From Candidatus Acetothermia bacterium (GTDB taxonomy: Bacteria > Bipolaricaulota > Bipolaricaulia > RBG-16-55-9): a stretch of 64,000 nucleotides of DNA. The stretch's first letter is position 1. Every line of letters begins with the position of its first letter. The stretch is from NCBI GenBank assembly GCA_016201405.1, contig JACQCZ010000016.1:23798-87797 (forward strand), read 5' to 3'. Below the pieces are notes generated by a model, which saw only the letters and a program-made list of their open reading frames with translations, did no database searches and was not told the DNA's origin. Position numbers and translations under genes: made by a program. Below are positions 40,747 through 64,000 of this stretch, in pieces.

Positions 40747-40934
40747 TACACTGATACAGTCCCCAATAAATCAGAACAATTTGATGATTCGGCTTATGAT
40801 ACATCGGTGATACATGATAAATAATGATACACGTATCATCTATGTATCAGAGAGTGTATCATAAGAAAAGGCCCATGGAATCAGGAATGTATCACAATAT
40901 CAGTATTAGACGGCGTGTTGGAACAAAACGCTAC

Positions 40935-45373: not shown

Positions 45374-46149
45374 TAGGCTGCCTCCTCAGGTGGGGTGGAG
45401 TATTCATCTTTGCGAATTCTCCAGAAGTGTACGGCGATCAAAAGCACAATCAGCGTTGGCAACAGAAATACATGAATCACATACCAGCGAATGAGTGAGA
45501 ACTGATCCAGGTTGTTGCAGTTATCAACACCCAGAAGCCCTTGCCGCACCTGGTTGCCTATAAACGGGGCACTGTTGGCGATGTTGCAAGCGATCTTCGC
45601 AGCATAATATCCCAACTGATCCCATGGCAAAATATAGCCTGAGAATGCAAACATAATGGTGATGAGCAGAAGCAAAATTCCAATGATCCAGTTGAATTCT
45701 CGCGGTCTCTGATAGGCTCCCTTAAAAAACACAACAATCATGTGCATAAAGACGGCAAGCACCATCAGCTCACCCGCCCACTTATGAAGATTGCGGAAAT
45801 ATCGCCCCAAGTCTACCTGGTTGACGATATAGCGGATCGTGTCAAAAGCACGCTCTACAGAAGGGACATAGTAAAACATTAAGAAAATCCCCGAGATCAC
45901 TAAGATCACAAAGAGCCAGAATGTGATAACCCCCATCCAGAACCAGCTATAGGTAAGACGCATCGAGCTCTTATTGATCGTGGCTGGGAGAATATGCACA
46001 AAGAAATTTTTCCGGTTCATCGCCAGAAAGTCGCTCTCAGTTTGTGGCAAATGCTCACGGCGGAAGATGGAGGTCCAGAGCTTAGTCCGGCGCAACTGCT
46101 GCATCACTAAAACAAACTTATCGATCAGGCTGAAAAATATTGTATCCAC
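45373..46149 (-). CDS. Cytochrome b6-type (N-terminal four-helix, di-haem) subunit of a split Rieske/cyt b complex
   Basis: Haem-ligand helices RYFRNLHKWAGELMVLAVFMHMIVVFFKGAY...PREFNW and IRWYVIHVFLLPTLIVLLIAVHFWRIRK. The true start may be an internal Met. Confidence 0.8.
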   Translation of the reverse strand: MDTIFFSLIDKFVLVMQQLRRTKLWTSIFRREHLPQTESDFLAMNRKNFFVHILPATINKSSMRLTYSWFWMGVITFWLFVILVISGIFLMFYYVPSVERAFDTIRYIVNQVDLGRYFRNLHKWAGELMVLAVFMHMIVVFFKGAYQRPREFNWIIGILLLLITIMFAFSGYILPWDQLGYYAAKIACNIANSAPFIGNQVRQGLLGVDNCNNLDQFSLIRWYVIHVFLLPTLIVLLIAVHFWRIRKDEYSTPPEEAA

Positions 46150-46156
46150 AGTTCAA

Positions 46157-46789
46157 TTATCCCTGGCAGGGCTTGCAGTCCTTGCCCTCCGGCAAAACTC
46201 CCTTCACCATTTGACCCTGCTCCGGGTCAAAATATAGATCATGCCCCACCCCTACTCCTGCTAAACGACTCAACTCATCCGTCGCAGTTGTTTTGCCTTT
46301 GTCCACGATCAGACGCCCATCAGCAGAGAGACTGATCTCATAGAATGGCAAAGGTTTGGGAGCTGGCCCTCCGATGCGCTGTCCATTGCGTGCGAATACA
46401 CTTCCATGACAGGGGCACTGCGCGTGAACCACCGGGTAATCTGGGCTGGGTGGTCCAAACGGCTTGTATGAGCAGCCAAGGTGAGTGCAGATGGCCGAGA
46501 CCGCCTGAAATCCCTCTTGACTGCGAAAGATATAGACCTGGTATGTATCCAAGAGCTTCATGTCGCCAACCTGATAATCACTCGGTGGCCCTATGCTAAA
46601 GCTGGTCTTAGGCTCAAAGTTAAGCTTGGGCAAGATGAACGCAACTACGCTGGTAAACACACCACCCATCGTCAAAAGGAATGCGGTCAATCCAATACGG
46701 GTAAGAAATTTTCGGCGGGTGAATTGCTGCGCTGTCGGGGACTCTTCAAATCCAGATTGCTCGGTTATTTTTGGCTTTCTCTTGAACAT
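46157..46789 (-). CDS. Rieske [2Fe-2S] iron-sulfur protein with Tat signal
   Basis: Twin-arginine motif RRKFLTRIGL plus a TM anchor. Rieske boxes CTHLGC and CPCHGS. Confidence 0.85.
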   Translation of the reverse strand: MFKRKPKITEQSGFEESPTAQQFTRRKFLTRIGLTAFLLTMGGVFTSVVAFILPKLNFEPKTSFSIGPPSDYQVGDMKLLDTYQVYIFRSQEGFQAVSAICTHLGCSYKPFGPPSPDYPVVHAQCPCHGSVFARNGQRIGGPAPKPLPFYEISLSADGRLIVDKGKTTATDELSRLAGVGVGHDLYFDPEQGQMVKGVLPEGKDCKPCQG

Positions 46790-47087
46790 AATCGTTTTAG
46801 ATCCTCAGCATCGTATCCCCCCAAATTCAGCGTTTGTATGATCCTGATCATTCAAAGCAGTCACACAATCTTGCGAAAAATCGAGAATTTGAGGGGTTCA
46901 GACCGCATTATAGTGATTGATCCGTGAGGAGTCAATCGAAGGTTTATGTGTCATAAGATGGGAAAGAAAACCAGCATCGGCAGCCGATCATGGCTCGGAA
47001 TCGAAGAACCGATCTATCGTGGTCAGGCATCTTTTGTATAATAATGACCAACAAAATTTCGGAAATGAAAATGTCAAGAAGGAGCTT

Positions 47088-51142: not shown

Positions 51143-51377
51143 TTTCAGGAGTACTCCATCTCTCACCAGAATTTCACCGCCTTCTATTGTGTCAAAAGAG
51201 ACAGACAAAGGAGAAGAACATCCAACACCATACTGTGTTACGGCGATCACTCCCTCAGGGGATAACAAAGTGATGCGTGTGACAGACGTCACATCGATTC
51301 GGCGCATAGAATCATGCTATACTCAAGGGCAGAATCAAAACGATGGCCATGCGCCAGATGAGGAGGGCGACAATACG

Positions 51378-53507
51378 ATGAAGGCCGCCCGTGGGAAAAT
51401 TGTCTCTCTTATATTCTTCTTTCTATCGATAATTGCTTTTATTGGCCTGGGGCAAACGACTGCCTCGACCAATACCGTGGATATTGCGAAAGACAAGGTG
51501 GACTTCACCGTCTTCTCCCGAGATGGCCAGGATGGCCTGGGAAGCCCAAACACAATGACATTGGGAGATTTTAATAATGACCAGAACATTGACCTTTTGA
51601 TCGGAGCCCCAGGAGGGGACGGCCCTGACGACCGCCGCAAAGATGCAGGCGAAGCTTACATCGTCTATGGGCGCGATAAAGACACGTTTGTACCAGAACT
51701 TAATACAGATGGGATTCCTGGCCCTGACGTAGTCATCTATGGAAGAGACTTGGGAGATCTGCTTGGAAGCGGCGTCGCAGCTGGTGATGTAAATGGTGAT
51801 GGCATTGATGATATCATCCTTGGAGCGCCTGGAGGCGATGGTCCTTCCAACGGATATTCCGGTTTGGGCGAAGTTGTAGTAATATTTGGTGGTCTGACTC
51901 TTCCATCAAGAATAGATTTAGCAAAGACAAAAGAAAACTCTATTATTTTTAATAATGTCCAAGAAAGTCGGTTCGGCACTGCAATCACCGCGCCGGATCT
52001 TAATGGCGATGGCATTGACGACATCGTTATAGCAGATCCTTTTGACATCAGTAAAGGAAGGCACCGATCCGGAGCCGTATTTGTAATTTTTGGAAGAAGG
52101 GATCTCCCTCAGCGTTTTGATATAGGCTCCAATCGACCTGGCTTAAGCCCTGATGTCCGAATCTTAGGAGCCAATGCGGAGGATCAGATTGGAATCTCGC
52201 TTGCTAAAGGGGATATCAACCACGATGGTGTGGAAGATGTCGTCATTGGCGCGCCATTTACAGATGGCCCAAACAATGACCGCACTGACGCCGGAGAGAC
52301 TTACGTCATCTATGGAAACTTCCACCTGCCTGCAACAATTGATTTGGCAGCTACCAGCGCTGACGTCACAGTCTATGGTGCCGATGCACAAGATGAGCTG
52401 GGGCTCTCTGTATCAGCGGGAGATGTCAACGGGGATAAGACGCAAGATCTGCTCATCGGCGCTCCCTTCGCCAGCGGAATTGATAAACTGAAGGGATATT
52501 CTGGCGAAGCCTATGTCATTTATGGAAAACCGCTCCTGCCATCCATTATTGATTTGAATATGACGAGCGCAGACTCCAGAATCTTAGGAGCATCTCCACT
52601 CGATAATTTAGGGTCATCTGTGGCTGCGGCTGACCTCAACGACGACGGCCTCAACGATTTGATATTAGGTGCTCAGGGTGGACGAGGTCCCGATGGAACA
52701 AGAGCCAGAGCTGGAAACGTCTATGTCATTCGCAGCCCTGGCAATCTCCCTCCTCTAATTGATCTTGGCAAGAATGAATTCAACTTGGTTATTTACGGAG
52801 CAAAGACGGGCGACAATCTGGGCAGCGCACTTGCCGGAGGCGACCTTGGCGGCAAGGGGAACGGCTTCTTGATGATGGGCGCAAACGGAGTAGATTCACC
52901 AGCAGATGGCCCCGATGCCGGTGCAATCTATGCTCTCTTTGCCAAAGAGCTGATCGGAGGAGGCACTCCACCAACACCCACAACGTGCGTCAAAGGCGAT
53001 GTCGATTGCGATGGGAAGATTACGATTATCGATGCACGCATCGTCTGCGAATCGGTGCTCGGCATCCGAAAGCTGACCGCTAAAGAAGTGGCCCTGGCTG
53101 ACGTAGCTGAGCCGTTTGGCCAGATCACGCTGGCAGACGCCTTCAAGATTGCGCAAGTCTCCGTCGGAATTGGAACGATTGAAACGAAGACGGGAACTTC
53201 AGTGAGCCAGGCTCTCGAAGCGGCCTCAGCACTCCACATACATCGCTGGGGAATGTTAAGCCATGGCAGCCAGATCGAATTCCGGGCGCTCGGCTCGGGT
53301 GTGGAAGCGGTCAAAGTAGAGGTCTTTACGATGGATGGTCGGCCGATTTATAACAGCCCCTGGGCGCAGGGCGACCGGGTGCTTTGGATGTGGCAAGGAT
53401 TAGATAATAAGTTTGCAAACGGCGTTTATCTCTATGTGATTCAGGCTCAGGGTATTGACGGACGGCTGTCTCGTAGCGAGGTCTTAAAGGTGATCGTTCT
53501 GAGATGA
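51378..53507 (+). CDS. Secreted seven-repeat FG-GAP (integrin-alpha-like beta-propeller) protein with a dockerin-like module and T9SS-type C-terminal domain
   Basis: RBS AGGAGGG. Signal peptide. Seven repeats of the form GDxNGDGxDDxxxGAP..DG....AGxxYVIYG. Dockerin-like GDVDCDGKITIIDARIV...ADVAEPFGQITLADAFKIAQ. CTD ...ANGVYLYVIQAQGIDGRLSRSEVLKVIVLR. Confidence 0.8.
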   Translation: MKAARGKIVSLIFFFLSIIAFIGLGQTTASTNTVDIAKDKVDFTVFSRDGQDGLGSPNTMTLGDFNNDQNIDLLIGAPGGDGPDDRRKDAGEAYIVYGRDKDTFVPELNTDGIPGPDVVIYGRDLGDLLGSGVAAGDVNGDGIDDIILGAPGGDGPSNGYSGLGEVVVIFGGLTLPSRIDLAKTKENSIIFNNVQESRFGTAITAPDLNGDGIDDIVIADPFDISKGRHRSGAVFVIFGRRDLPQRFDIGSNRPGLSPDVRILGANAEDQIGISLAKGDINHDGVEDVVIGAPFTDGPNNDRTDAGETYVIYGNFHLPATIDLAATSADVTVYGADAQDELGLSVSAGDVNGDKTQDLLIGAPFASGIDKLKGYSGEAYVIYGKPLLPSIIDLNMTSADSRILGASPLDNLGSSVAAADLNDDGLNDLILGAQGGRGPDGTRARAGNVYVIRSPGNLPPLIDLGKNEFNLVIYGAKTGDNLGSALAGGDLGGKGNGFLMMGANGVDSPADGPDAGAIYALFAKELIGGGTPPTPTTCVKGDVDCDGKITIIDARIVCESVLGIRKLTAKEVALADVAEPFGQITLADAFKIAQVSVGIGTIETKTGTSVSQALEAASALHIHRWGMLSHGSQIEFRALGSGVEAVKVEVFTMDGRPIYNSPWAQGDRVLWMWQGLDNKFANGVYLYVIQAQGIDGRLSRSEVLKVIVLR

Positions 53508-53731: not shown

Positions 53732-55903
53732 ATGAAGTACCAAATCTTATCGGGAGTTTTAATAATAGCGTTCGTAACGCTATTTGGCGTGCCTGCCTTA
53801 GGCCAGGCAACGGTGACAGACCAGAATTATCTAGCACCAGGTGGAAACGTAGAGCCTGGTGCGAGTGCTCCTATGACAGTCTCCTCTGACGCTCCAGCTA
53901 CCTTGGGAGACGGGATAGTTGTCAGCCAGTTCCAAGTCTGCGATGTTGACCCCTTGGCTGATGATAACAGTCCAGTTAACATCACCGAGTTTAATGTAGA
54001 CAATTTAGGGTCGGCTAGCCTTGTTGACATCACTAGTGTCATGATTATCGACGGCCACGGATTTTCTGTAGGAGCAGTCGCAACACCAGGTCCTCCTCCA
54101 AATCCAAACATATCGTGGAGAGCCACTGTGACCCCAGAAACAGCAATAGTGATTCCAGATGATCAATGTGAAGTCTTCTCGGTGGCAGTTGAGACGGCTA
54201 CTACATCTTCCTTTGGAGCAGGTCTAGGAGACAGCCAAAATCATACATTGCGGCTGCGAACAACTCTGACGATGAACGAGTGTCTAAGTGGCGATATGAG
54301 TAGCACACCGCCTGTCTGCGCGTCACCGACTACATTCGTGGAATCCAGCACAGACGGGGCACCTGAATACATCTGCAACTGCGGTGTCAATAGACTCACC
54401 GACGATATGTATGTGGTCAATCCACTTATGCCAAGCATGTCGGGCGTAGTCAGTCGCTTCACAGTCTGTGATGATGACTCGAATGAACACAACCTGTACC
54501 TTACTCAGCTTACAATGAAACAAGGCAATCAAGGGTCTGCAGAATATACAGACTTTGACATGATCAATGTCTATCGAATCGAGTCCAGTGGCAGGACCCA
54601 AATTGCTTCTTTTACTCCTGACGTCAACTTCAATCGCGGCGGTACCGGCGATCAGATTTTGGCAGCAAACCAAGTCTTGATTATCACCGACGACAGTTGC
54701 GCTGTCTTCGAGGCTGACGCTCAGGTCTCACAATATGCCTTCAAGGGCCGCCTCATTCAACTGGCGTTCGACATTGATGCCGAGGAACCCCGTGGCACTC
54801 AAATTGGAGTAGGCGGTGCTACTCCTGCACCAGCGTCGCCACCAGCAGGGGTTTCTGGGGTCGCTCCTGAAATCCAGACTCATGTTCCGACACCAATTGG
54901 CAAGGGCATGATCACGATTCCAAGCACGATCATTCTTGGCTCCCCGGGTGACATCCCGCTCGGCGTCCAGGGCATCCCGATTCCAGGTCTCGGCACGCTT
55001 CAGGTCGGACCTACGGGAGCTTTCCACTTCGACCCCGCGGTCATCCAGATTCTGGAGATCGTCGGCGTAGGCGACTACACGGTGGAAGCCGTCCAGATCG
55101 ACAACCGCCGCGGCGAAGCTCGCTTCACCGTGCGCATTGACCCGGCAGAGGCTCCGAACGGCATCAACAATGGAACCGTTGCCATCATTCGCGTGCAGGG
55201 CGTCGGGAAACCGGGCGACCGGACACGGCTCTATATGAACTTTGACCAAGTGACCGATGCGGACAATAACGTGTTGGCAGATGCCAGCAACCCGCTCACG
55301 CTGAGCAACGTTGGCGTCATTGAAGGCCAAGTGCGGCTCGTTCCACACGGCGACGTAGATGGGGACGGCCACACCACAGTCAGCGACGCGCTGCTGCTCG
55401 CAGATCAGCTCATCCTGGGATCGCCTTGCGCGGGTCTCACGGACGAGCAGAAGGTCATCGCCGATGTGGCTCCGCCATTCGCAGATGTGGACGTAACTCC
55501 GACCTGCAGTGGTGACAACCCGACCTTGACCTCAGCCGATGTGGCTCAGATCGCAAAGCTTGCCATTACTACCGCTGCAGCCGGTCTCGCAGCCAGCAGT
55601 GATGTGCAAAGCCCAGTCGTGGCAGCGCTCCACGTCTCACAGATCCAGACGACTGTGCGCTTGGGTGCGATTGCGTTCCGAGCCCAAGGAACTGGTGTCT
55701 CCAGCATGGAAGTCCGGCTCTATAGCCTGACAGGCAGACAGATCCTGGCTGGAAAGAGCACGGGCAGCCAATTGATGGTGCATGCTCGGGATCAGTTCGG
55801 CAAAGCGCTGGCCAACGGCGTATATCTCTACGTCGTCACGGTCCATGGTGTGGATGGCTCTGTCCTCCGCAGCGTGGTCAAGAAACTGGTAATCCTGCAC
55901 TAG
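53732..55903 (+). CDS. Large secreted surface protein (723 aa), paralog of the protein at 48569-51142: cohesin-like domain, dockerin-like module, T9SS-type CTD
   Basis: Signal peptide. Shares the N-terminal domain with the minus-strand paralog (NLGSASLVDITSVMIIDGHG). Cohesin-like region (FHFDPAVIQILEIVGVGDYTVEAVQIDNRRGEARF). Dockerin-like GDVDGDGHTTVSDALLLADQLILG...ADVAPP...LTSADVAQIAK. CTD ...ANGVYLYVVTVHGVDGSVLRSVVKKLVILH. Confidence 0.75.
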   Translation: MKYQILSGVLIIAFVTLFGVPALGQATVTDQNYLAPGGNVEPGASAPMTVSSDAPATLGDGIVVSQFQVCDVDPLADDNSPVNITEFNVDNLGSASLVDITSVMIIDGHGFSVGAVATPGPPPNPNISWRATVTPETAIVIPDDQCEVFSVAVETATTSSFGAGLGDSQNHTLRLRTTLTMNECLSGDMSSTPPVCASPTTFVESSTDGAPEYICNCGVNRLTDDMYVVNPLMPSMSGVVSRFTVCDDDSNEHNLYLTQLTMKQGNQGSAEYTDFDMINVYRIESSGRTQIASFTPDVNFNRGGTGDQILAANQVLIITDDSCAVFEADAQVSQYAFKGRLIQLAFDIDAEEPRGTQIGVGGATPAPASPPAGVSGVAPEIQTHVPTPIGKGMITIPSTIILGSPGDIPLGVQGIPIPGLGTLQVGPTGAFHFDPAVIQILEIVGVGDYTVEAVQIDNRRGEARFTVRIDPAEAPNGINNGTVAIIRVQGVGKPGDRTRLYMNFDQVTDADNNVLADASNPLTLSNVGVIEGQVRLVPHGDVDGDGHTTVSDALLLADQLILGSPCAGLTDEQKVIADVAPPFADVDVTPTCSGDNPTLTSADVAQIAKLAITTAAAGLAASSDVQSPVVAALHVSQIQTTVRLGAIAFRAQGTGVSSMEVRLYSLTGRQILAGKSTGSQLMVHARDQFGKALANGVYLYVVTVHGVDGSVLRSVVKKLVILH

Positions 55904-55944
55904 ACTTTCGTACGGGTTACCTCATGAAACGAACGTCGATGAAA

Positions 55945-55980
55945 GGAGCCCTCTGCTAGACCAGAGGGCTCCTTCTCTTC
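55945..55980 (+). terminator. Rho-independent terminator
   Basis: Perfect 11-bp inverted repeat GGAGCCCTCTG-ctagac-CAGAGGGCTCC, followed by TTCTCTTC, 40 nt after the stop at 55903. Confidence 0.6.
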
Positions 55981-56045
55981 GGACGAATGTCCTTCGGGCA
56001 GAAGAGCAGACACTCATAAAATGAGCACGATCAATCTCAAACAGC

Positions 56046-57131
56046 ATGAAAATGGAAGTCTTACATAAAGCGAAATCTATACGAGCTCTTGGCAATCTCT
56101 TTCTCGCCCTCGGGCTTTGTCTTTCATTGGCCATTGAGCTCAAGGCCCAGCCGACACCACCACCAATAGTCACACCAACCACAGCCACCATTGACGTGGG
56201 ACTTGTCACGGTTCCTCACGGAAGCACAGGAACAGTCAAGGTCTCTATCCAAGGTGCCCCTTCAAGTCTCTCCGACTTTCAGGGAAAGCTCACCTATGAC
56301 TCTAAAGTCGTCAACGTGCGCGAGATTGCAGGGCTCAATGGATACACCATTGCTGCATTTCAGATTGACAACCTGGATGGCGAAGTGCGCTTTATTGGAT
56401 TTAAGACTTCCGGCACGCTCATCACCGAAGGTGATTTTTTGCAATTTACGGTGGCCGCTGTCGGAGATACAAACTCTAGCACTTCGCTCAATATGGAATT
56501 TATTACGCTTAATGATGCTGCTGGCGTTGCCATCCCGCGCATCGTTCGCCCAGGGAAGTTCACGGTAGGCGCACAACAAGAGATCGCTGCCGATTTCTCT
56601 TGGGCGCCAGCCAATCCTGAGGTCGGACAAGAGGTCCAGTTCACGGACAAGACTGTTGCCGCAGGCACAACATTTAGCAGTTGGGCATGGGATTTTGGAG
56701 ATAACGCGACCAGCACAGAGCAAAACCCTAAACACAAGTACGCTCAAAAAGGAACATTTACTGTAAGCCTTACCATCGAAGATGATCAGGGGAATAAGGG
56801 CTCTGGACAGAAGCAGGTGGTCATCCGGGGACAGGGCGAGGCGATTACCATTCCGGCTCACAATTTTCCTAACCCCGCAAAGGATAGCACGACATTCTCC
56901 TATCAGTTGCCGCAAGGAACGACGCAAGCTTCGTTGACAGTCTATGATTTCACAGGGCCGCTCGTCTTCTCTAAGAGTCTTGCTGCGGACAGCATGAAGC
57001 TGGAGTGGGACCTCAAGGATCAGAGCGGACGAGACCTGCCCAATGGCGCCTATTATTACCGCATTTGGGCTTCCACAAAAGAGGGAGCAGTTCTGTCTAA
57101 AGTCGGAAAGCTGGTTATCATTCGATCATGA
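56046..57131 (+). CDS. Secreted cohesin-like, PKD-domain and T9SS-CTD protein
   Basis: Signal peptide. Cohesin-like domain (GTVKVSIQGAPSSLSDFQGKLTYDSKVVNVREIAG...GEVRFIGF...GDFLQFTVAAVG). PKD domain (WAWDFGDNATSTEQNPKHKYAQKGTFTVSLTIEDDQGN). CTD (NFPNPAKDSTTFSY...NGAYYYRIWASTKEGAVLSKVGKLVIIRS). Confidence 0.75.
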   Translation: MKMEVLHKAKSIRALGNLFLALGLCLSLAIELKAQPTPPPIVTPTTATIDVGLVTVPHGSTGTVKVSIQGAPSSLSDFQGKLTYDSKVVNVREIAGLNGYTIAAFQIDNLDGEVRFIGFKTSGTLITEGDFLQFTVAAVGDTNSSTSLNMEFITLNDAAGVAIPRIVRPGKFTVGAQQEIAADFSWAPANPEVGQEVQFTDKTVAAGTTFSSWAWDFGDNATSTEQNPKHKYAQKGTFTVSLTIEDDQGNKGSGQKQVVIRGQGEAITIPAHNFPNPAKDSTTFSYQLPQGTTQASLTVYDFTGPLVFSKSLAADSMKLEWDLKDQSGRDLPNGAYYYRIWASTKEGAVLSKVGKLVIIRS

Positions 57132-58084
57132 TTCTTCAACGTCAATCCCGGCTGATCGGTATCCTCGTGCTTCTTTTGATCGGAGCCTTTGCATCTTCTG
57201 GGCAAGCACAGAGTGCCATCACATTGCTAGACATGGGAGCTGGAGTTCGCGCACTCGCCATGGGTGAGGCTTTTGTGGGGCTAGCCGATGATGAGCAGGC
57301 CGCCTTTTATAATCCCGCCGGGTTGGCCTATCTAAGCGGAATATATGCAAGTGCCAATTACGAGAGCCACTTGGGGGCTTCTAGCTATTTGAGCCTGCTT
57401 GGGGCCACGCATGGTATAGGTCTGGGGCTCTTCTTATTTAGCCTCGGCGATGTCGAGCAGCGAGATGATCAGGATAAAGTTCTTGGAACCTTTGGATATT
57501 CAAACTTTGCGGTCACCGCATCTGGGGGACTTCCGCTCAGCCAGATTCCTCTCGGGTTTACGCGCAGCCTTGATTCACTCTCTATGGGAGGCCGTTTCAA
57601 GTTCCTGGGCGTAAGCACATTGGAAGGCGGAAATGGCTCAGCAATCGCACTCGATTTGAGCTGGTTTTTCAAAGGAAACAATGCAATAGATCATCTTTTG
57701 CCTGGAAGTGGTATTCATTTATTTCAAGCAGGGTTGAGTATTGAAAATCTTGTGAGTATTGGTCTTGGATATGCAGGAGGACATCACGAGCGACTTCCGT
57801 TCAAGATCAAAACGGGGTTCGCGATCAGCCCAATGCAGAGCTTGACATTATCAATGGATTTGGCAATTCCCTTTGAGTTCCATCTCGGTGGTGAGTACAG
57901 CCTCTCCTTGCCAAGCCCACTCTCCCATATGGATATTCGGGCAGGCGCGGTTGTCCGTGGAGGGACGTTCGCATTTACAGCAGGGTTTGGAGTCGTCAGA
58001 GAGCCTTTTCGTCTCGATTATGCATTCGTCAGCCATCCGAGTCTGCCAGGCTCTCACCGACTGGCTCTCTCGCTGCAGTTTTGA
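57128..58084 (+). CDS. Outer-membrane beta-barrel protein, FadL/PorV-like (predicted partner of the upstream T9SS cargo)
   Basis: Signal peptide. N-terminal motif GAGVRALAMGEAFVGLADDEQAAFYNPAGLAYL resembles the FadL/PorV-type N-terminus. Alternating amphipathic strands. C-terminal ...LALSLQF ends in Phe. ATGA overlap with the upstream cargo gene. Confidence 0.55.
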   Translation: MILQRQSRLIGILVLLLIGAFASSGQAQSAITLLDMGAGVRALAMGEAFVGLADDEQAAFYNPAGLAYLSGIYASANYESHLGASSYLSLLGATHGIGLGLFLFSLGDVEQRDDQDKVLGTFGYSNFAVTASGGLPLSQIPLGFTRSLDSLSMGGRFKFLGVSTLEGGNGSAIALDLSWFFKGNNAIDHLLPGSGIHLFQAGLSIENLVSIGLGYAGGHHERLPFKIKTGFAISPMQSLTLSMDLAIPFEFHLGGEYSLSLPSPLSHMDIRAGAVVRGGTFAFTAGFGVVREPFRLDYAFVSHPSLPGSHRLALSLQF

Positions 58085-58132
58085 AGATATGAAGGGGGTT
58101 TGATCTTGGTTGTTCAAAACCGAGAGACGCAG

Positions 58133-59209
58133 ATGATAGATCTGGGCAAGCTCTTGAAAGAGCTATCTCTGGCTTTGGGAATTTTCATTTCCTGCATCTT
58201 GGGCATACAAACGCTCGCTCTAGCTCAAACCACTACAACCCCTGAACTCAAAGCAAAGGTCGTTGTGGATGATGCACAGATTCCTCAGGGGCAGGACGCG
58301 ATCATCAAAGTGACTCTGACCGATGACCCCGCCAAGCGAGGGCTAGTCAGCTTCCAGGGATCTGTCAGCTATGACCCGAACGTGATCACAGTGCTAGAGG
58401 TTCTCTTCCCAACTGAGTGCCCGGTCTGGGCTGCCAATATTCAGGCTGGGCTAGTCAGATTCGCCGCCACCAAGTGCTCCGGGAACAAAGGGGATGTCAA
58501 AGTGGGTGAGCTCTTCCGGCTGCACATCAAGGCCGTAGGGCCTCCAGGCTCAACCACGACGCTAAACCCAACGTTTGATATTTTTGATGATTTTGATTTC
58601 AAGTTCATTCCGTATGAAGTGGATCCAGGGGTTATTGTCATCACAGGTGGGACTGCGAATATACCTCCAGTTGCCGATTTTGATTACACACCTCACAGTC
58701 CAACAGAGAAAGACACAATCAAGTTTATAGATCAGTCCCATGATCCTGATGGCAGCGTTGTGAAGTGGAATTGGGATTTTGGTGACGGCAGCAAACTGGA
58801 TGTACAAACGGCTTCGCATAAATACGCAACGGCAGGCTCATACAACGTCACACTGACCGTGACGGATAATGGCGGTGCCACAAACGCCGTCACAAAACCC
58901 GTCGTCGTGAGAAATTCCGGTCCAATGGGCTTTGTCTGTCTTAACTATCCAAATCCAGTGCGCGTCAGCACGACCTTTGTCTGCGGGCTTCCGAATGGAG
59001 CTACACAGGCAACGTTGCGAATTTACAATCTGACCGGGCGTTTGGTAAAGAGCCAGGATCTTGACATCCATCATCCTGAGTATCTATGGAATCTCAAAGA
59101 TGACCAAGGGAACGATCTGCCTAATGGCCCGTACTTCTATCTAGTACAGGCAGTGACCCCCGGAGGCGTGCAGCTAACGCGCGTGGAGGTGCTGATCATC
59201 GAACGATGA
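58133..59209 (+). CDS. Secreted cohesin-like, PKD-domain and T9SS-CTD protein (paralog of 56046-57131)
   Basis: Signal peptide from MIDLGKLL... (the ATG at 58133 is favoured over the TTG at 58100). Cohesin-like domain (QGQDAIIKVTLTDDPAKRGLVSFQGSVSYDPNVITVLEV). PKD domain (WNWDFGDGSKLDVQTASHKYATAGSYNVTLTVTDNGG). CTD (NYPNPVRVSTTFVC...NGPYFYLVQAVTPGGVQLTRVEVLIIER). Confidence 0.75.
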   Translation: MIDLGKLLKELSLALGIFISCILGIQTLALAQTTTTPELKAKVVVDDAQIPQGQDAIIKVTLTDDPAKRGLVSFQGSVSYDPNVITVLEVLFPTECPVWAANIQAGLVRFAATKCSGNKGDVKVGELFRLHIKAVGPPGSTTTLNPTFDIFDDFDFKFIPYEVDPGVIVITGGTANIPPVADFDYTPHSPTEKDTIKFIDQSHDPDGSVVKWNWDFGDGSKLDVQTASHKYATAGSYNVTLTVTDNGGATNAVTKPVVVRNSGPMGFVCLNYPNPVRVSTTFVCGLPNGATQATLRIYNLTGRLVKSQDLDIHHPEYLWNLKDDQGNDLPNGPYFYLVQAVTPGGVQLTRVEVLIIER

Positions 59210-60210
59210 AATCCCTACGAGTTCTTTCGCTCTTTCTAATTGGGCTGTTTATATTCGCATCAAGCGATGGCTATGCCCAGCGGCTAGTCGGGCTTTTCGA
59301 CCTAGAACAGGGAGTCCGCGCTGCCGCAATGGGTGGAGCCTATGTCGGGCTTGCAGAGGGGGATTGGGCACTCTACTACAATCCCGCCGGGCTGGCCTAT
59401 CTGCATGAGCTTCACCTGAGCGGCATGTACGAGAGTCGGTTCTCTCGCGCAGATCAGGGAATCTTCACCATGGCCGTACCCAACTTTGCGGGACAGCTGC
59501 TCTTCCTCACCGTCAATGGTGCAGTGCGGCGAGATGATACAGGCAAAGACCTGGGACTCATTCCCTACTCGCAGTTTGGATTGCTTCTCGGAGCCGGCTT
59601 CTCTCTCAGCGATTTTGTCGAGAATAGCGACTTTGGTGGACTCAGCATCGGCAGCCAGCTAAAGTTCTACTCAATCAGCACAGACACCCCCGGCCAAGGA
59701 GCTTCCATCTCCATCACGCCCAGCGCGATGTGGTCGGAAGAGCGCGTGATGTTTGGCGATCTGCCACTCCAAGTCTTGCGCTTTGGAGTCATTGCTCCGG
59801 ATCTTCTAAGCCTAGGCTTTTCATACGGGAGTGGCCATCACGAAAGCTGGGGGCCCGGGTTGCGCTTCGGTGCATCTGCCAGCACACCGGATGGCCTCAC
59901 CTTCGCTGCGGACCTCGATGCCCTGGGCAGCTTCAGCCTTGGCGCAGAGTGGCTCTATCGGGGCTTAGAACTGGGCGATCTTGGACAGGCCGATGTCAGT
60001 ATCCGTGGAGGACTCAAGAATATTGGCAGCATTCTAACCCCAAGCATCGGCTTCGGGCTCCGTTTGGGAGATCTTCGTGTGGATTACGCGCTCATTATTC
60101 ATCCTGATCTTCCCGATGTTCACAGATTCTCAATCTCTGGCGTCTTTGGCCCGCCAAACTTCCTGCTTTGTGCGCTGCGCCCTGCGGTCTGTCCTAGGGA
60201 CGACCCATAG
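59206..60210 (+). CDS. Outer-membrane beta-barrel protein, FadL/PorV-like (paralog of 57128-58084)
   Basis: Signal peptide. N-terminal motif EQGVRAAAMGGAYVGLAEGDWALYYNPAGLAYL. The C-terminal region ...VDYALIIHPDLPDVHRFSISGVF is paralogous to the first barrel. ATGA overlap with the upstream gene. Confidence 0.55.
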   Translation: MKSLRVLSLFLIGLFIFASSDGYAQRLVGLFDLEQGVRAAAMGGAYVGLAEGDWALYYNPAGLAYLHELHLSGMYESRFSRADQGIFTMAVPNFAGQLLFLTVNGAVRRDDTGKDLGLIPYSQFGLLLGAGFSLSDFVENSDFGGLSIGSQLKFYSISTDTPGQGASISITPSAMWSEERVMFGDLPLQVLRFGVIAPDLLSLGFSYGSGHHESWGPGLRFGASASTPDGLTFAADLDALGSFSLGAEWLYRGLELGDLGQADVSIRGGLKNIGSILTPSIGFGLRLGDLRVDYALIIHPDLPDVHRFSISGVFGPPNFLLCALRPAVCPRDDP

Positions 60211-63200
60211 AGAAGTCGCGTCCGAACTGGAATTCAACGACGAAACTGTCGCGTGAATCTTTCGAGTTGACTCCATTGAGGTTGAAGAGATAGACGGAAG
60301 TGACTGTAGAAGTCCAATCTGGCATCGGCTCAAAATCACTCTTCAACGTGACTTCGCCGTCCAGCTCATTGAGGGGTTGTCCTGATTGAGTCCCCTCAGA
60401 ATAGTCAAACTCAGTGGAAAGACTCGGCGTAAACCCAGGGAAGAACTCGTAATGCAAGGTCTGCTGTAATGAATAGCTGATCTGCTCATCACGATCCATG
60501 GATTTGTAATCTCGTGAAAGCAGGAGGTCTGCGCTAAGTGGACCTGCCGACTGCCAGTTCATCTGAAGGGATACGCTATATTGTCCACTCACTTTCCGGC
60601 CAAAGAGTGGATGGATCAACGTATCAAGACTTCCATTAAACGTAAGAACAGGCCGCACCTGCCCAAAATCGAGAAGATTGAGATTGACAGATAGAGAGTC
60701 TTGAAAGCGTGTGAGCTGGTTGCGTTGTTGTTCAGTAAAGCTCCTGCGATAGCGTATCTGTCCATCAATTCCCGCCAGACCCCCATCCAAACTTCCCTCT
60801 CCCAGCCATTGCAGGCTAGAATCTGACCCAAAGGGATCGATTACTCCTGCCGTGAAATTGAGGCGGGGCGAGAAATGGAGGTCACGCAGGGTCATTGTCG
60901 TTGTGCTGAGGGTAAACTGTGCATTTTGAGTGAGCGTGCTCTCTCCTCCACCCGCAGAGGGGATCCGCGCGTTGCCATGAAAATCGGAAGAGAGCGTCAG
61001 CGAGAGCATGTCAAGGGGGATCGTGCGGTTCCAACTCACCTGCCAATCCAACTGGTGTTGGCTAGAAAACTCGCCATAGCGCCACATTGATGGGAGGCGA
61101 TATCCTGTTTTGAGTTGCAAGCCAGGCATAATTTCAATGCTGACTCCCCCACTCAAGGTGCTGGACGAGTTGGAATAGGCTGGGCGCTTCAAATCGACCA
61201 GATCGTCGATTGTGTACCCCAAGCTCACGGCGAGCTTGTTGCTAAAGAAATTCTGCTGGAGAGTCATGTCCATAGAGTGCACCTTCTGATCAAACCCTTC
61301 TTGTTTGAAATCCCGGTCAACCTGTCTCAAATTCGACTCGATGTGGATCTGTGGGCCACCTCCATCGGGGGTGAACGCAAATTCAATCAAATCCGAGATC
61401 GTGAGATTGGGTAAGTGATAACGGTCAAACAACCCCTCTTGGTGAGTAGCGCGAAGATTGAGGAAAGGAGTGATCGGATAGACTCCACTAAGGTTGAGAC
61501 TGATGTGGTCTTGGCGATTCAGAGTCCCAACGGGAGAGAAAGCTGGCGTGACTCCTTCCAAATAGCCTTCCAGATGCAAATCGCCCAACATCTTTCTCAG
61601 CAATAATCTGCCATAGATTCCCTGGTCAGTATGCCCATCGGGAGAGATGTCTTGAAAGCGGTGATCCGCCCGGCCACTCAGATGAGTCTCCACTTCCTGA
61701 TAGAGACGCACATTGGAGGGCGTATGGACATTGTAGAGGAAGAGCTGATAATTCTCGTTGGCGACTCCTCCTGCCCAAATCGAATCAGTCGTGCCAGCCA
61801 CCGCCGTAACTGCGTGACCTTCTGCAATTTTGACCCGCCCGCTCTTGACCCCATAGAGGCCCGTATTGGTCCCATACCAAAGCTCCCCAGTGAGAACTCC
61901 AACGCTGCGTACAAATTGGTCAGAGACGGGCCAGCCAACGCCCACCCCGCCTTGCAGAGCGCGGACTCCCTGATCTGTGGCTGCATAGACGACATCACTG
62001 TCTTCTGCCAAATCTCGAATAGCAACACCTTGAAGCTCAGGGACGGAACGCAAATATTTGAGATCGGAATCTAGAATCGCAAGCCCGTGGTCGGTGCCAA
62101 TATAGAGCCACCCGGCCGCCGCTCCGAGTTTGAGTATGCGATCGCTGGGCAGCTCTCGGTACTCTTTTCGCTGATAATACTTCCATTTGAGCACGCTGGA
62201 GATCTGTTCAATGCGTACTTGCCCCAGTGCCGTATCAGAGCCAACCCAGAGAACCCCATCGTGTAAGAGAACAGCATTGAGCTTCTCTCCCGGCACGCCA
62301 TCTCGCTCATCGTAGGACTTCCAATTTCGTTTTCGGGCAAAGCTAGGCATAGGATTTCCGGAATCGAGCTTTAAAACAGTCAAGCCTCCAGATGTGGCGA
62401 AGACCAACTGATCTCCTTCATAGGCAATGTCATAGACCTCTTGACCGGCAAGACCCTCCCGAATCCCGTAATTGGTCCAATTGGCTCCATCAAAGAGAGT
62501 AAGGCCATTTCGATGTCCAATCAGCACCAGGGGCCAGCCGTCATGAGCAATCACTCGGATCACATGCGTGAAGTTTGGCTGGTTGGCTCGCTCATTGTTG
62601 TCGGATGGGAATCGGTTCTGGGCCACTCCAAGATCAAAGGCCCCGTCTAAAAGGCCTCCTTGGAATTTCCCGCTGACACCCAAAACGGTATCCGTATTGG
62701 GCATTGTTTCGAGCGTCTCAGGGTCTACTCCTTGCTTGAGGGCATCATGAGCTTGCAAAAGATCAATATCGAGCTGCAGACCGCTATTAGGTTCCAGATG
62801 CATGCTGAGACTGTTGAAGGTCCTTCCAAAATCGCTGATCCCCAACAGGCCACCACGTGCTGTCTCATACTCAACACGCAACACGTCATCTTTCCCAAGA
62901 GGATTGAAGAGAACGAGCACTCCATTATCGTACTGCATTATATAATCGACATTGCTCTGTAAGAGACGCCCGTTCAAATAGACCTTCTCGCTGTTTTTGA
63001 GAACGGTCAACCCCAGGATGTAGACGCCCGTGCCAGTCTGATAGGAAAAGGTCACCTTGACGCCTGCATCTTTATTATCAAAGAACTCCGGCGGGACCTG
63101 GAGCTCCAAAACCCCGACACTGGGAAAGACGTGAGTCTCATAGTGGGTCAGAGTCGGGTCATGAACATCGAGGAAATCATTCCCATTAGTCGTGACTTCA

Positions 63201-64000
63201 ATATGAACGGTATCTTCTTGGACGTCTTTGACATGAAGAGAATAGAATCTCTGGTTGGAGCTGTCTTTAGTCGTAAATGATTGGTCATCCACTCGAATTT
63301 GGGTATGCAATGCAAGCTCTTTGAGAAATTCCTGCTCAAAATCGGTGTCTTGGTTAAATGGATATTCTTTCTGCTGATCTGAAGAGAGCTTCTGCTCTGA
63401 GTTATAATCATCTATTAAATCAAATAGCTTTTCGCGCAAGATGGAAAGATAGGGAGAATTGAGAGCAAGAAAATACTCTTTCTCTTCAGGAATGACTGCA
63501 TAGAGGGTTGGATCCAAATCCGATTCGGGAGCCTTGGCGATGGCATCATTCAGATAATCCAAGTCATATTGCTTTAAGATATCTCGCAGTCCGGAGTCTG
63601 CCAAAAAACCGAGCTTCACCACAGTAAACCCCTCTACGAAATTGGGCCCCAATGAAAAATATTCCAAGCCCTTGAGACTCGTACCATAAGGCTCCGTCGT
63701 AAACGCCTGATTGGGATCGTGATAGGAGAACGTAATAGAACTCTCAACAGTATTGCCGCGAAAGGTCTTTGTCTCTAAGTTTCCAGTGATCTGAGAATGG
63801 ATCCCGCTCAACGTAACGTGCTCGCTCAAGTTCCAATCCACCTTGATTCCCTTAAGCAGCCGGGAGGCGTACGCAAAAGGGCTGTCCTCGCGGGCCATGG
63901 GAAAATCCCCATACTCCGCCTTCCAGGTCTTGGCCTCCCACAACATCCGAACCGACTGCAAGAAATCAGGTTGAGTCGTATCGAGCTGCGCAATAAGTGA
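60194..64000 (-). CDS. Very large (more than 1255 aa, 5' end beyond window) secreted/outer-membrane-associated protein with Reg_prop-type beta-propeller repeats and a C-terminal beta-barrel-like region
   Basis: The minus-strand frame is open through nt 64000. The reported TTG at 63961 is an ORF-caller artefact. The central region has repeated ...LW(V/Y)G(T/S)xxGL...-type propeller blades (LWVGSDTALGQV, LYIGTDHGLAILD, LWYGTNTGLYGVK). The C-terminal 450 aa are rich in alternating polar/hydrophobic strands. Confidence 0.45.
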   Translation of the reverse strand, partial: SLIAQLDTTQPDFLQSVRMLWEAKTWKAEYGDFPMAREDSPFAYASRLLKGIKVDWNLSEHVTLSGIHSQITGNLETKTFRGNTVESSITFSYHDPNQAFTTEPYGTSLKGLEYFSLGPNFVEGFTVVKLGFLADSGLRDILKQYDLDYLNDAIAKAPESDLDPTLYAVIPEEKEYFLALNSPYLSILREKLFDLIDDYNSEQKLSSDQQKEYPFNQDTDFEQEFLKELALHTQIRVDDQSFTTKDSSNQRFYSLHVKDVQEDTVHIEVTTNGNDFLDVHDPTLTHYETHVFPSVGVLELQVPPEFFDNKDAGVKVTFSYQTGTGVYILGLTVLKNSEKVYLNGRLLQSNVDYIMQYDNGVLVLFNPLGKDDVLRVEYETARGGLLGISDFGRTFNSLSMHLEPNSGLQLDIDLLQAHDALKQGVDPETLETMPNTDTVLGVSGKFQGGLLDGAFDLGVAQNRFPSDNNERANQPNFTHVIRVIAHDGWPLVLIGHRNGLTLFDGANWTNYGIREGLAGQEVYDIAYEGDQLVFATSGGLTVLKLDSGNPMPSFARKRNWKSYDERDGVPGEKLNAVLLHDGVLWVGSDTALGQVRIEQISSVLKWKYYQRKEYRELPSDRILKLGAAAGWLYIGTDHGLAILDSDLKYLRSVPELQGVAIRDLAEDSDVVYAATDQGVRALQGGVGVGWPVSDQFVRSVGVLTGELWYGTNTGLYGVKSGRVKIAEGHAVTAVAGTTDSIWAGGVANENYQLFLYNVHTPSNVRLYQEVETHLSGRADHRFQDISPDGHTDQGIYGRLLLRKMLGDLHLEGYLEGVTPAFSPVGTLNRQDHISLNLSGVYPITPFLNLRATHQEGLFDRYHLPNLTISDLIEFAFTPDGGGPQIHIESNLRQVDRDFKQEGFDQKVHSMDMTLQQNFFSNKLAVSLGYTIDDLVDLKRPAYSNSSSTLSGGVSIEIMPGLQLKTGYRLPSMWRYGEFSSQHQLDWQVSWNRTIPLDMLSLTLSSDFHGNARIPSAGGGESTLTQNAQFTLSTTTMTLRDLHFSPRLNFTAGVIDPFGSDSSLQWLGEGSLDGGLAGIDGQIRYRRSFTEQQRNQLTRFQDSLSVNLNLLDFGQVRPVLTFNGSLDTLIHPLFGRKVSGQYSVSLQMNWQSAGPLSADLLLSRDYKSMDRDEQISYSLQQTLHYEFFPGFTPSLSTEFDYSEGTQSGQPLNELDGEVTLKSDFEPMPDWTSTVTSVYLFNLNGVNSKDSRDSFVVEFQFGRDFSMGRP

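Follow-up and report, generated by a model that had tools for sequence, protein, structure and literature searches.

Two consecutive gene pairs, each coding for a secreted protein with a T9SS-type C-terminal domain (CTD) and a beta-barrel of the PorV/PorQ family, have a slightly better than even chance of forming the core of a compact locus for T9SS-like secretion and display in an atypical diderm, in which the barrels would anchor their cognate CTD proteins at the cell surface. The locus comes from an uncultured Acetothermia (Bipolaricaulota) bacterium and was analysed in a 64-kb stretch of DNA (the window), whose 15-32 kb part was annotated in part only. All four open reading frames that the initial annotation placed at 56046-60210 are present on the forward strand: cargo/anchor protein 1 (cargo 1, 56046..57131, 361 aa), barrel 1 (57128..58084, 318 aa), cargo/anchor protein 2 (cargo 2, 58100..59209, 358-369 aa depending on the start used) and barrel 2 (59206..60210, 334 aa). 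The candidate starts of cargo 2 are TTG at 58100 (369 aa), TTG at 58106 and ATG at 58133; gene callers take 58106 or 58133. The proteins of the locus are currently annotated as 'hypothetical' or 'PKD domain-containing'.

In both pairs the cargo TGA overlaps the barrel ATG, and the ATGA can be read directly at 57128-57131 and 59206-59209. The 1:1 co-expression that had been deduced from these overlaps was an over-reading. At least eight further co-directional gene pairs in the window have a 4-nt overlap; because such overlaps are common there, ATGA alone indicates operon-type coupling, not 1:1 stoichiometry. The overlaps would mirror co-transcription and translational coupling within each cognate pair. 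Between cargo 1 and the 723-aa gene before it, a strong hairpin rich in G+C, with a U-rich stretch after it (55941..55977, forward strand; -46.5 kcal/mol and z = -3.6 when 55904-56045 is folded), is likely a terminator separating the four-gene unit from the 723-aa gene. Promoter and terminator consensus scans within the four-gene unit stayed at chance level. The two cargos are paralogous (34% identity, E 2e-56), and so are the two barrels (34% identity, E 4e-42).

Cargo 1 consists of a signal peptide, a cohesin-like module (aa ~42-178), a PKD module (aa ~182-261) and a type-A-like CTD (aa ~271-360), and ends in ..VIIRS. Cargo 2 has the same architecture. PKD_4 was strong in both (61.5 and 76.1 bits). 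The claim that the cargos bear T9SS-type CTDs held: the C-terminal domains of cargos 1 and 2 scored above threshold with FlgD_ig (35.7 and 35.9 bits respectively, GA 27) and with the type A CTD family TIGR04183 (23.2 and 27.5 bits, cutoff 23). PF18962 gave 27.2 bits in cargo 1 (GA 27) and 19.6 bits in cargo 2, and the type B CTD family TIGR04131 was under its cutoff (E 0.1). PNP, GxY and K..V.I.R motifs are readable in the cargo CTDs. Cohesin (PF00963) was just under its GA of 24.1 in the window cargos (22.7 and 20.0 bits) and clearer in their orthologues (E<=1e-5). Only cohesin-like and PKD modules, and no catalytic domain, were detected in the cargos by HMM scan.

Barrel 1 has a signal peptide, an N-terminal NPAG hatch motif, a 14-stranded barrel and a terminal beta-signal (..LSLQF). 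The N-terminal motif noticed in the initial annotation is real (G.R..(A/G)MG.A.VGLA....A.(F/Y)YNPAGLAYL), and N62-P63-A64-G65 is invariant among 60 homologues. The C-terminal Phe attributed to both barrels was found in barrel 1; in barrel 2, GPPNFLLCALRPAVCPRDDP stands after the Phe that aligns to the terminal Phe of barrel 1, forming a 20-aa tail with two Cys (60148-60207) that is conserved among orthologues. Barrel 1 reached 84.2 bits against NF033709 (residues 29-317 on profile 2-323/326), barrel 2 reached 31.6 bits through its N-terminus only and the orthologues in the clade 49-71 bits. The barrels of the window fall short of the cutoff of 90, barrel 1 narrowly, and are therefore annotated 'hypothetical protein'. 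The PorV equivalog NF033710 (cutoff 250) gave 40.0 bits with barrel 1 and no match with barrel 2, and the PorQ equivalog NF033711 (cutoff 220) gave 46.8 and 15.0 bits respectively; on these scores, the barrels are orthologous to neither PorV nor PorQ. A profile of the 60 barrel sequences matched Flavobacterium johnsoniae PorV in the PDB (6h3i_F, E 3.2e-22), its sole match at E<=1, and barrel 2 matched the HMM of the barrel family over its full length (E 8e-95). Structure modelling covered barrel 1 of the two barrels. Its AF2 model (pLDDT 92.7) has 14 long strands and an N-terminal helical segment (aa 29-70), and Foldseek ranked two PorV chains from SprA complexes first and second (8gl6_F, TM 0.69; 6h3i_F, TM 0.66), ahead of FadL (TM about 0.55). 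Neither barrel matched PorP/SprF (TIGR03519) at E<=1 or any Pfam family, including FadL/Toluene_X (PF03349), at E<=0.01. The PorV profile match and the barrel 1 model thus bear out the assignment to the outer-membrane beta-barrels of the FadL/PorV superfamily. The barrels had also been assigned to a family different from that of the SprB/SprF-type pairs: they are indeed not PorP/SprF, but by profile and model comparison they are divergent PorV/PorQ-family proteins rather than a separate family.

Related loci were found by a genome scan with an alignment tighter than the 60-sequence one. The cargo-barrel-cargo-barrel unit was present in 18 two-pair loci of Bipolaricaulota, Fraserbacteria and MAGs labelled 'Thermotogae', with barrel identities of 32-63%. 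A CTD protein was encoded directly upstream of the barrel at every one of the 41 junctions in 22 non-redundant clade loci, a conservation that does not represent many independent observations, since the loci are of common ancestry. The upstream protein was cohesin-like with PKD wherever the cargo ORF was complete. Junctions were tight in 39 of the 41 cases (22 ATGA overlaps, most others gaps of <=21 nt) and loose in two (39 and 68 nt). The two outcomes named beforehand as refuting the pairing, ordinary FadL-type barrels together with loss of adjacency in relatives, were not found: the barrels score as PorV and the adjacency is kept. Contamination or mis-binning of the MAGs is unlikely, as independent assemblies place the locus on contigs of 113-297 kb that also contain housekeeping genes; where an assembly has an organism label, the name is Acetothermia, Bipolaricaulota or Fraserbacteria.

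For 35/36 barrels, 34/36 CTDs and 35/35 cohesin-like domains, the nearest neighbour came from the same position class. By sequence comparison, the two cargo-barrel pairs are separate orthogroups, and their duplication is ancient, preceding the split between Bipolaricaulota and Fraserbacteria. A recent tandem duplication was ruled out by the orthogroup analysis; the duplication suggested in the initial annotation stands as paralogy, at a much older date. Co-evolution between cargo CTD and barrel was weakly favoured: partial mirror-tree correlations were higher for cognate than for non-cognate pairs (0.29 against -0.06, and 0.71 against 0.43), a modest signal from non-independent distances. In other phyla, a CTD protein was encoded directly before a PorV/Q-family barrel in 36 of 56 cases, with 24 C25 PorU-like and 12 non-peptidase partners. 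C25-PorV2-like pairs of Cloacimonadota have the same order, the barrel gene directly following the CTD-protein gene, and the two often overlap by 4 nt.

The main competing explanation is that the barrels are shuttles and not anchors, collecting CTD proteins, possibly all five encoded in the locus, from the translocon and passing them on or releasing them, the gene adjacency being operon organisation only. The barrels match PorV best, and type A CTDs have PorV as their general shuttle (PMC12618676, PMC5562754). Moreover, none of the three large CTD proteins in the locus comes with its own barrel, so some barrel sharing must occur. However, two barrel orthogroups have been kept strictly beside two cargo orthogroups since before the Bipolaricaulota-Fraserbacteria split, co-variation is biased to cognate pairs, and no sortase or attachment machinery to which the cargo could be passed was found downstream. 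We consider the shuttle unlikely.

Since the barrels are divergent PorV/PorQ proteins, the nearest precedent for anchoring is PorU-PorV and PorZ-PorQ, not SprB/SprF. In the attachment complex of Porphyromonas gingivalis, PorU is anchored via PorV and PorZ via PorQ (PMC12365241). The locus is similar in having two pairs of a CTD surface protein and a 14-stranded FadL-like PorV/PorQ barrel, in which the holding would operate by analogy, and, as in porU-porV, the CTD-protein gene is directly upstream of the barrel gene. It differs in the tandem arrangement of its two pairs, in barrels that score under the curated family cutoffs, and in its partners, which are small cohesin-like/PKD proteins rather than a C25 sortase or a propeller-type carrier of A-LPS. 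Unlike P. gingivalis, the host belongs to Bipolaricaulota, outside the FCB superphylum, and the one closed genome of this phylum examined lacked LPS genes. The likeness to SprB-SprF proposed earlier is partial. Type B CTD proteins need a dedicated PorP/SprF-like partner for secretion or anchoring (PMC12618676, PMC9143113), and here too a barrel partner is encoded directly downstream of each CTD protein; by contrast, the CTD is type A-like (TIGR04183), the barrel belongs to the PorV/PorQ family, and the widespread porU-porV gene pair is closer. The same composition, two CTD proteins plus two PorV/Q-family barrels (PMC12365241), and the maintenance of the four genes as one unit would also be compatible with a heterotetramer like PorU-PorV/PorZ-PorQ that modifies or cleaves other cargo instead of being a passive cohesin anchor. 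Neither CTD protein has a detected catalytic domain and there is no C25 peptidase nearby, which makes this alternative improbable.

Convergent with barrel 2, and overlapping it by 17 nt, is a gene predicted to encode a giant outer-membrane barrel similar to SprA ('mini-SprA'; 60194..64000, reverse strand, 5' end beyond the window). This convergent gene, at 60194->64000, had been overlooked in the initial annotation. The full-length protein has 1,338-1,375 aa and is annotated as hypothetical. Its AF2 model (pLDDT 84.8) shows about 30 long strands, compared with about 36 in SprA, and an inserted 7-bladed beta-propeller. The top three Foldseek matches in the PDB were SprA chains (8gl8_A, 8gl6_A and 6h3i_A; E 6e-16 to 1e-13, TMq 0.41-0.42). 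It matched TIGR04189 at 15.2 bits (E 0.002) in one 52-residue stretch, under the cutoff of 200; its profile reached TIGR04189-positive proteins, with two collinear conserved segments in common. Against PDB sequences, the whole-protein profile retrieved two-component-regulator propellers and a trivial PorZ-propeller match only, with no SprA, and Phmmer gave nothing meaningful. From model and profile comparisons, this neighbour of about 1,375 aa is predicted to be a half-size SprA-like giant barrel. Like SprA/Sov (6H3I, 8GL6, 8GL8), it would be a giant outer-membrane barrel encoded beside PorV-like and CTD genes, unlike them in its size (about 1,375 aa vs about 2,400) and in the inserted propeller.

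The SprA-like gene adjoins barrel 2 in 11 distinct loci, and the cargo-barrel pairs of loci L007-L009 have no adjacent SprA-like gene. These latter loci, together with the tight translational coupling of each pair, are what a type V-like export would predict, each barrel translocating or inserting its own upstream partner and the SprA-like protein being unrelated to the pairs. Such export is still less probable than a modifying heterotetramer: folded cohesin and PKD domains could not fit through a 14-stranded barrel with an internal N-terminal hatch, the barrel family shares its ancestry with PorV, itself no translocator, and the adjacency in the 11 loci points the other way. That the barrels are ordinary FadL-type transporters of hydrophobic substrates, simply located beside surface proteins, is hardly credible despite the fold shared with FadL (TM about 0.55), the generality of the NPA(G) hatch motif in the FadL superfamily and the alkane use reported for a cultured Bipolaricaulota strain (bioRxiv 10.1101/2025.11.21.689855), because the Toluene_X/FadL family of Pfam gave no match at E<=0.01, PorV is ahead of FadL by sequence and structure, and pairing with CTD proteins is seen throughout the clade and often in distant relatives. 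The barrels have the 14-strand fold and the N-terminal NPA-containing hatch of FadL/TodX; unlike these, they lack a family-level sequence match and their context is secretion, not lipid metabolism.

Three large CTD proteins are encoded upstream of the four-gene unit. The first is a secreted protein of 912 aa (48569..51307, reverse strand; 857 aa in NCBI) with two cohesin-like modules (aa 446-562 and 697-810), one dockerin-like module (aa 575-648, E 3e-15) and a divergent CTD (aa 839-912), delimited by local iterated HMMs; it had no Pfam match, and a weak PorU/PorZ CTD match. The second is an FG-GAP repeat protein (51273..53507, forward strand; FG-GAP 138 bits) with a dockerin-like module and, by local HMM, a C-terminal CTD. 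Its start is 51273 (NCBI) or 51378 (Logan), and a longer mechanical ORF from 50826 overlaps the preceding gene. The third, a secreted protein of 723 aa (53732..55903, forward strand), is a paralogue of the 912-aa protein and has, by local HMMs, one cohesin-like module (aa 393-516), one dockerin-like module (aa 536-612, E 1e-23) and a divergent CTD (aa 649-722). Dockerin_1 (PF00404, GA 22.9) scored 23.3 bits when the FG-GAP segment was scanned alone, was borderline in the 723-aa protein (17.7 bits, E 0.004) and had no match in the 912-aa protein; the local iterated HMM linked the dockerin-like modules of all three. Of the five CTD proteins, these large ones alone have dockerin-like modules; cohesin-like modules are present in both barrel-linked cargos as well as in the 912-aa and 723-aa proteins. 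This cohesin-like/dockerin-like split was also overlooked earlier. It resembles the scaffoldins of Clostridia cellulosomes, in that the proposed cell-bound proteins bear cohesin-like modules and the secreted multidomain proteins encoded alongside bear dockerin-like ones, a likeness that depends on modules borderline against the Pfam cutoffs. Unlike in the cellulosome, no glycoside hydrolase domains were seen in the locus proteins, and the anchor would be a CTD on an outer-membrane barrel (diderm), not SLH or sortase (monoderm).

In the favoured anchoring model, all five CTD proteins, whose signal peptides are visible in the sequences, would be exported by Sec and would presumably use the SprA-like giant barrel to traverse the outer membrane. 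Each 14-stranded barrel would then bind the type-A-like CTD of the protein encoded upstream and hold it non-covalently at the surface, as homology, conserved pairing and weak co-variation suggest. The barrel-held proteins would display their cohesin-like module on a PKD stalk. In the most speculative step, the three large dockerin-like CTD proteins would dock on these anchors, cohesin-dockerin binding replacing the sortase/A-LPS attachment of the canonical T9SS. No C25 sortase was found in the window or in any clade locus, and neither the window nor the flanking regions of related loci showed PorK/L/M/N (GldK/L/M/N) motor/ring genes. A wider proposal, possible though doubtful, is that Bipolaricaulota and Fraserbacteria have their own minimal type IX-like module, made up of type-A CTDs, a SprA of half the usual size and two PorV-like barrels dedicated to their cargos, without C25 sortase and possibly without the PorKLMN motor and ring, in which cohesin-dockerin docking onto the barrel-held anchors replaces covalent attachment to A-LPS.

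The T9SS is described as confined to Bacteroidota or to the FCB superphylum (PMC11285876, PMC12618676). That the host is outside this superphylum is a further point overlooked in the initial annotation. Homologues of three T9SS outer-membrane parts meet at the locus (a translocon-like barrel, PorV/Q-like barrels and type A-like CTDs), which suggests the presence of T9SS-like outer-membrane parts in a deep-branching phylum with no earlier report of a T9SS. In its layout, each of two type-A CTD proteins has its own barrel, with no sortase nearby; in Bacteroidota, one PorV is said to serve all type A CTDs (PMC12618676). The closed Acetothermia genome Ran1 was found to lack LPS genes, and the outer membrane of the phylum is toga-like (PMC6092417; bioRxiv 10.1101/2025.11.21.689855). 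Cohesin-dockerin binding in place of A-LPS fits the phylum because of the Ran1 genome, and would, if true, represent an LPS-independent attachment route. The module could help to decorate a toga-type outer membrane in a phylum whose one closed genome examined had no LPS genes, a role that is testable because a first cultured Bipolaricaulota strain exists (bioRxiv 10.1101/2025.11.21.689855). If the wider proposal of a minimal type IX-like module is true, the outer-membrane core of the T9SS would be older or more mobile than the FCB superphylum. If the inferences on the locus are right, it would offer a naturally reduced system for learning which T9SS parts suffice for translocation and surface retention.

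The four open reading frames described in the initial annotation were all present exactly as placed, on the plus strand: cargo 1 (56046-57131, 361 aa), barrel 1 (57128-58084, 318 aa), cargo 2 (58100-59209, 369 aa; start uncertain, TTG at 58100, TTG at 58106 or ATG at 58133) and barrel 2 (59206-60210, 334 aa). The claimed paralogy was borne out for the cargos (34% identity, E 2e-56) and for the barrels (34% identity, E 4e-42), and the ATGA overlaps were read at both cargo-to-barrel junctions (..CGA TCA TGA / ATG ATT..; ..GAA CGA TGA / ATG AAA..). Four-nucleotide overlaps are frequent among the co-directional genes of the window, indicating ordinary operon coupling and not the special 1:1 co-expression device previously read into them. 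The cargos had been described as cohesin-PKD-CTD proteins. The PKD domain was strong in both (Pfam/NCBIfam) and their C-terminal domain passed FlgD_ig and TIGR04183 (the T9SS type A sorting-domain model), but the cohesin match was slightly below threshold.

Pfam returned no match for the barrels. Against NCBIfam NF033709 (PorV/PorQ family), barrel 1 aligned end to end (84.2 bits, slightly below the 90-bit cutoff) and barrel 2 at the N-terminus only (31.6 bits). A profile of 60 homologues searched against PDB sequences had F. johnsoniae PorV as its sole match (E 3e-22). The AF2 model of barrel 1 (pLDDT 92.7) contains 14 long strands after a short helical N-terminal segment, which carries an NPAG motif invariant among the 60 homologues. 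Its best solved-structure matches were the PorV chains of SprA translocon complexes (8GL6_F, TM 0.69; 6H3I_F, TM 0.66). The PorV and PorQ equivalog models scored the barrels far under their cutoffs, and orthology to either protein was rejected on these scores. Taken with the HMM scores, the PorV profile match and the fold ranking, this places the barrels in the PorV/PorQ family, as a divergent subfamily. An identity as FadL transporters was rejected, as Pfam was silent and FadL ranked behind PorV in the fold comparison (TM ~0.55). PorP/SprF was discarded, with no HMM match at E<=1.

The Candidatus Acetothermia MAG GCA_016179115.1 (contig JACOSA010000024.1, 118 kb) encodes a 'hypothetical protein' identical to barrel 1. 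Relatives at 32-70% identity belong to Bipolaricaulota/Acetothermia, Fraserbacteria and some 'Thermotogae'-labelled MAGs; the next relatives (<=28% identity) are PorV/PorQ-type proteins of Elusimicrobiota, Cloacimonadota, Latescibacterota, Gemmatimonadota and others. In NCBI taxonomy, Bipolaricaulota is a phylum outside the FCB group. The initial annotation had proposed cargo-barrel adjacency in relatives as a check, and had set against its own reading the case of ordinary FadL barrels lacking conserved CTD neighbours. Instead, the barrels are closest to PorV, and across 22 non-redundant loci of the Bipolaricaulota/Fraserbacteria clade a CTD protein lies directly 5' of 41/41 barrels, with cohesin-like and PKD domains wherever its ORF is complete. 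Junctions were ATGA overlaps in 22 of the 41 cases and TGATG in one, most others being gaps of 4-21 nt. The full cargo-barrel-cargo-barrel unit was found in 18 loci. When each sequence was paired with its nearest neighbour from another locus, the two shared a position class in 35/36 cases for barrels, 34/36 for CTDs and 35/35 for cohesin-like domains. By this comparison the two pairs are distinct orthogroups; the duplication is therefore older than the divergence of these lineages, and the four genes have been kept together as a unit. Partial mirror-tree correlations between barrel and CTD (cognate vs. non-cognate, 0.29 vs. -0.06 and 0.71 vs. 0.43) are only suggestive of cognate-biased co-variation.

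A C-terminal Phe had been ascribed to both barrels. This holds for barrel 1, where the beta-signal Phe is the last residue, but barrel 2 runs on for 20 residues beyond the aligned Phe of its last beta-strand (60148-60207; GPPNFLLCALRPAVCPRDDP). This two-Cys tail is kept in the position-2 barrels (barrel 2 orthologues) of many related loci and is confined to that position. The predominant version is GPPNxLLCALRPxxCPPDDP, and three loci (L009, L016 and L018) have the variant ANQTLICLFTGFDxVGICDP. The tail would be periplasmic if both barrel termini face the periplasm, and its cysteines might pair in a disulfide loop or tie it to a partner; the PorG-PorK disulfide (PMC12365241) offers a comparison.

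The three large upstream proteins (912 aa, 48569-51307, minus strand; FG-GAP, 51273-53507, plus strand; 723 aa, 53732-55903, plus strand) all end in a divergent CTD and all contain a dockerin-like two-loop module, linked by a local HMM; the FG-GAP segment alone passed the Pfam Dockerin_1 threshold. The cohesin-like module of the cargos recurs in the 912- and 723-aa proteins, and no dockerin-like module was found in the barrel-linked cargos. The 142-nt spacer 5' of cargo 1 holds a strong G+C-rich hairpin of 13-15 bp (55941-55977, plus strand; fold z = -3.6) followed by UUCUCUUC, marking off the four-gene unit from the 723-aa gene. Transcription of the latter probably terminates here, so the four-gene unit would have its own promoter. 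Taken mechanically, the FG-GAP ORF opens at a GTG at 50826 and shares ~480 nt (50826-51307) with the 5' part of the divergently oriented 912-aa gene. Because gene callers place the starts differently (FG-GAP at 51273 or 51378; the 912-aa gene at 51142 or 51307), the divergent promoter region is short and the starts of the two genes are uncertain.

The flanking genes are housekeeping genes (Rnf, cytochrome b, YidC, riboflavin, FtsH, DXR). An Rnf-type complex (RnfC, RnfD and Fer2/FeS subunits; ~40900-46800, minus strand) lies immediately upstream of the locus and adjoins Rieske/cytochrome b genes and an aldehyde dehydrogenase. The same flanks occur in relatives (L004), which argues against recent insertion. 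A sixth ORF with a CTD (31238-32626, minus strand) encodes 462 aa without any Pfam domain and lies within a sugar-nucleotide/Wzz/phosphodiesterase gene cluster ~17 kb from the locus; by local HMM (E 2e-11), its CTD belongs to the divergent type seen in the three large proteins. Neither the window nor any clade locus contained a C25 sortase, and no PorLM was seen in the window or in the flanks of related loci.

A large convergent gene (60194-64000, minus strand) shares 17 nt with the end of barrel 2 and runs beyond the window; its product is 1,338-1,375 aa. Named members of the family are from Bipolaricaulia and Fraserbacteria, Pfam gives the family nothing but a propeller match in one member, and the gene directly follows barrel 2 in 11 distinct loci, Fraserbacteria included. 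AF2 of the C-terminal 1,199 residues, run on a 26-sequence alignment (pLDDT 84.8), gave ~30 long strands broken by a propeller. In Foldseek, SprA took ranks 1-3 (8GL8_A, 8GL6_A and 6H3I_A; E 6e-16 to 1e-13, TMq 0.41-0.42), and LptD and propellers scored <0.2. The SprA model TIGR04189 matched weakly (E 0.002), failing the curated membership threshold. A search of 1.84 billion representatives with an N-terminal profile that excluded the propeller found ~90 family members, relatives of 1,545-1,729 aa matching at full length and, beyond these, proteins of 1,550-2,150 aa; one of the last, P0265, clears the SprA cutoff with 252 bits, and another, P0289, scores 157 bits. SprA-type proteins and this family have two collinear segments in common; what unrelated proteins share with it is limited to a repeated beta-sandwich motif. 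With moderate confidence, the product is predicted to be SprA-like.

Among the fetched loci, 36 of 56 more remotely related PorV/Q-family barrels likewise have a CTD protein directly 5' of them. In 24 of these 36 cases, mostly from Cloacimonadota, the partner is a C25 peptidase scoring PorU/PorU2, which is the classical porU-porV pair; the other 12 partners are non-peptidase repeat proteins (CarboxypepD_reg, NHL and others). The gene-pair logic of a CTD protein followed by its PorV/Q-type barrel is therefore general, and the Bipolaricaulota case is a variant with new partners. Further non-sortase pairs occur outside FCB (L057, L075, L077, L027 and L030), including ~1,970-aa proteins built from 13 CarboxypepD_reg repeats and, in Elusimicrobiota, an NHL/fn3 protein, so it may be common for type-A-like CTD adhesins to have a dedicated barrel partner. 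Some barrels of the family are natural fusions with a CTD-like or TPR module: ~412-440-aa proteins with their own FlgD_ig domain in Elusimicrobiota, WOR-3, Firestonebacteria and others (L026, L037, L047; P0072, P0077, P0095-P0097, P0100, P0113), and ~1,020-aa proteins with long TPR arrays (L028, L035, L036, L050).

T9SS substrates are exported by Sec, pass through SprA/Sov and are taken up by PorV via their CTD; PorU and PorZ, themselves CTD proteins, remain bound to PorV and PorQ as the attachment complex (PMC12365241, PMC5562754). For type B substrates, the genes of dedicated PorP/SprF partners lie downstream (PMC12618676, PMC9143113). Among known arrangements, PorU-PorV/PorZ-PorQ comes closest; the closest genetic logic is that of porU-porV together with type B CTD-PorP pairs. 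By contrast, here a PorV-like barrel is reserved for each type-A-like CTD, the partner proteins are binding modules and not enzymes, the translocon-like barrel is half the size of SprA with an inserted propeller, and the phylum lies outside FCB, where T9SS genes have been stated to be absent (PMC11285876). In the literature searched, no substantive link of T9SS to Bipolaricaulota or Fraserbacteria was found; public annotation calls all these locus proteins 'hypothetical' or 'PKD domain-containing'.

Overall, the initial interpretation is supported in part. Signal peptides are visible in the CTD protein sequences of the locus, and Sec would export all five. They would then pass the outer membrane via the SprA-like barrel, and each cohesin-PKD protein would be captured and permanently retained by its cognate PorV-like barrel, as homology, conserved pairing, separate orthogroups and the lack of a sortase suggest. 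More speculatively, the dockerin-bearing large proteins could dock on the displayed cohesin-like modules. The phylum's cells are surrounded by a toga-like outer membrane, and the closed Acetothermia genome Ran1 has no LPS genes (PMC6092417; bioRxiv 10.1101/2025.11.21.689855); it would therefore make sense for non-covalent anchoring to take the place of A-LPS attachment. A compact T9SS-like secretion and display locus comprising all four steps is the best explanation, one towards which we lean slightly. That it represents a minimal T9SS-like module, sortase-free, possibly motor-free and relying on cohesin-dockerin attachment, is a tentative and distinctly less probable extension.
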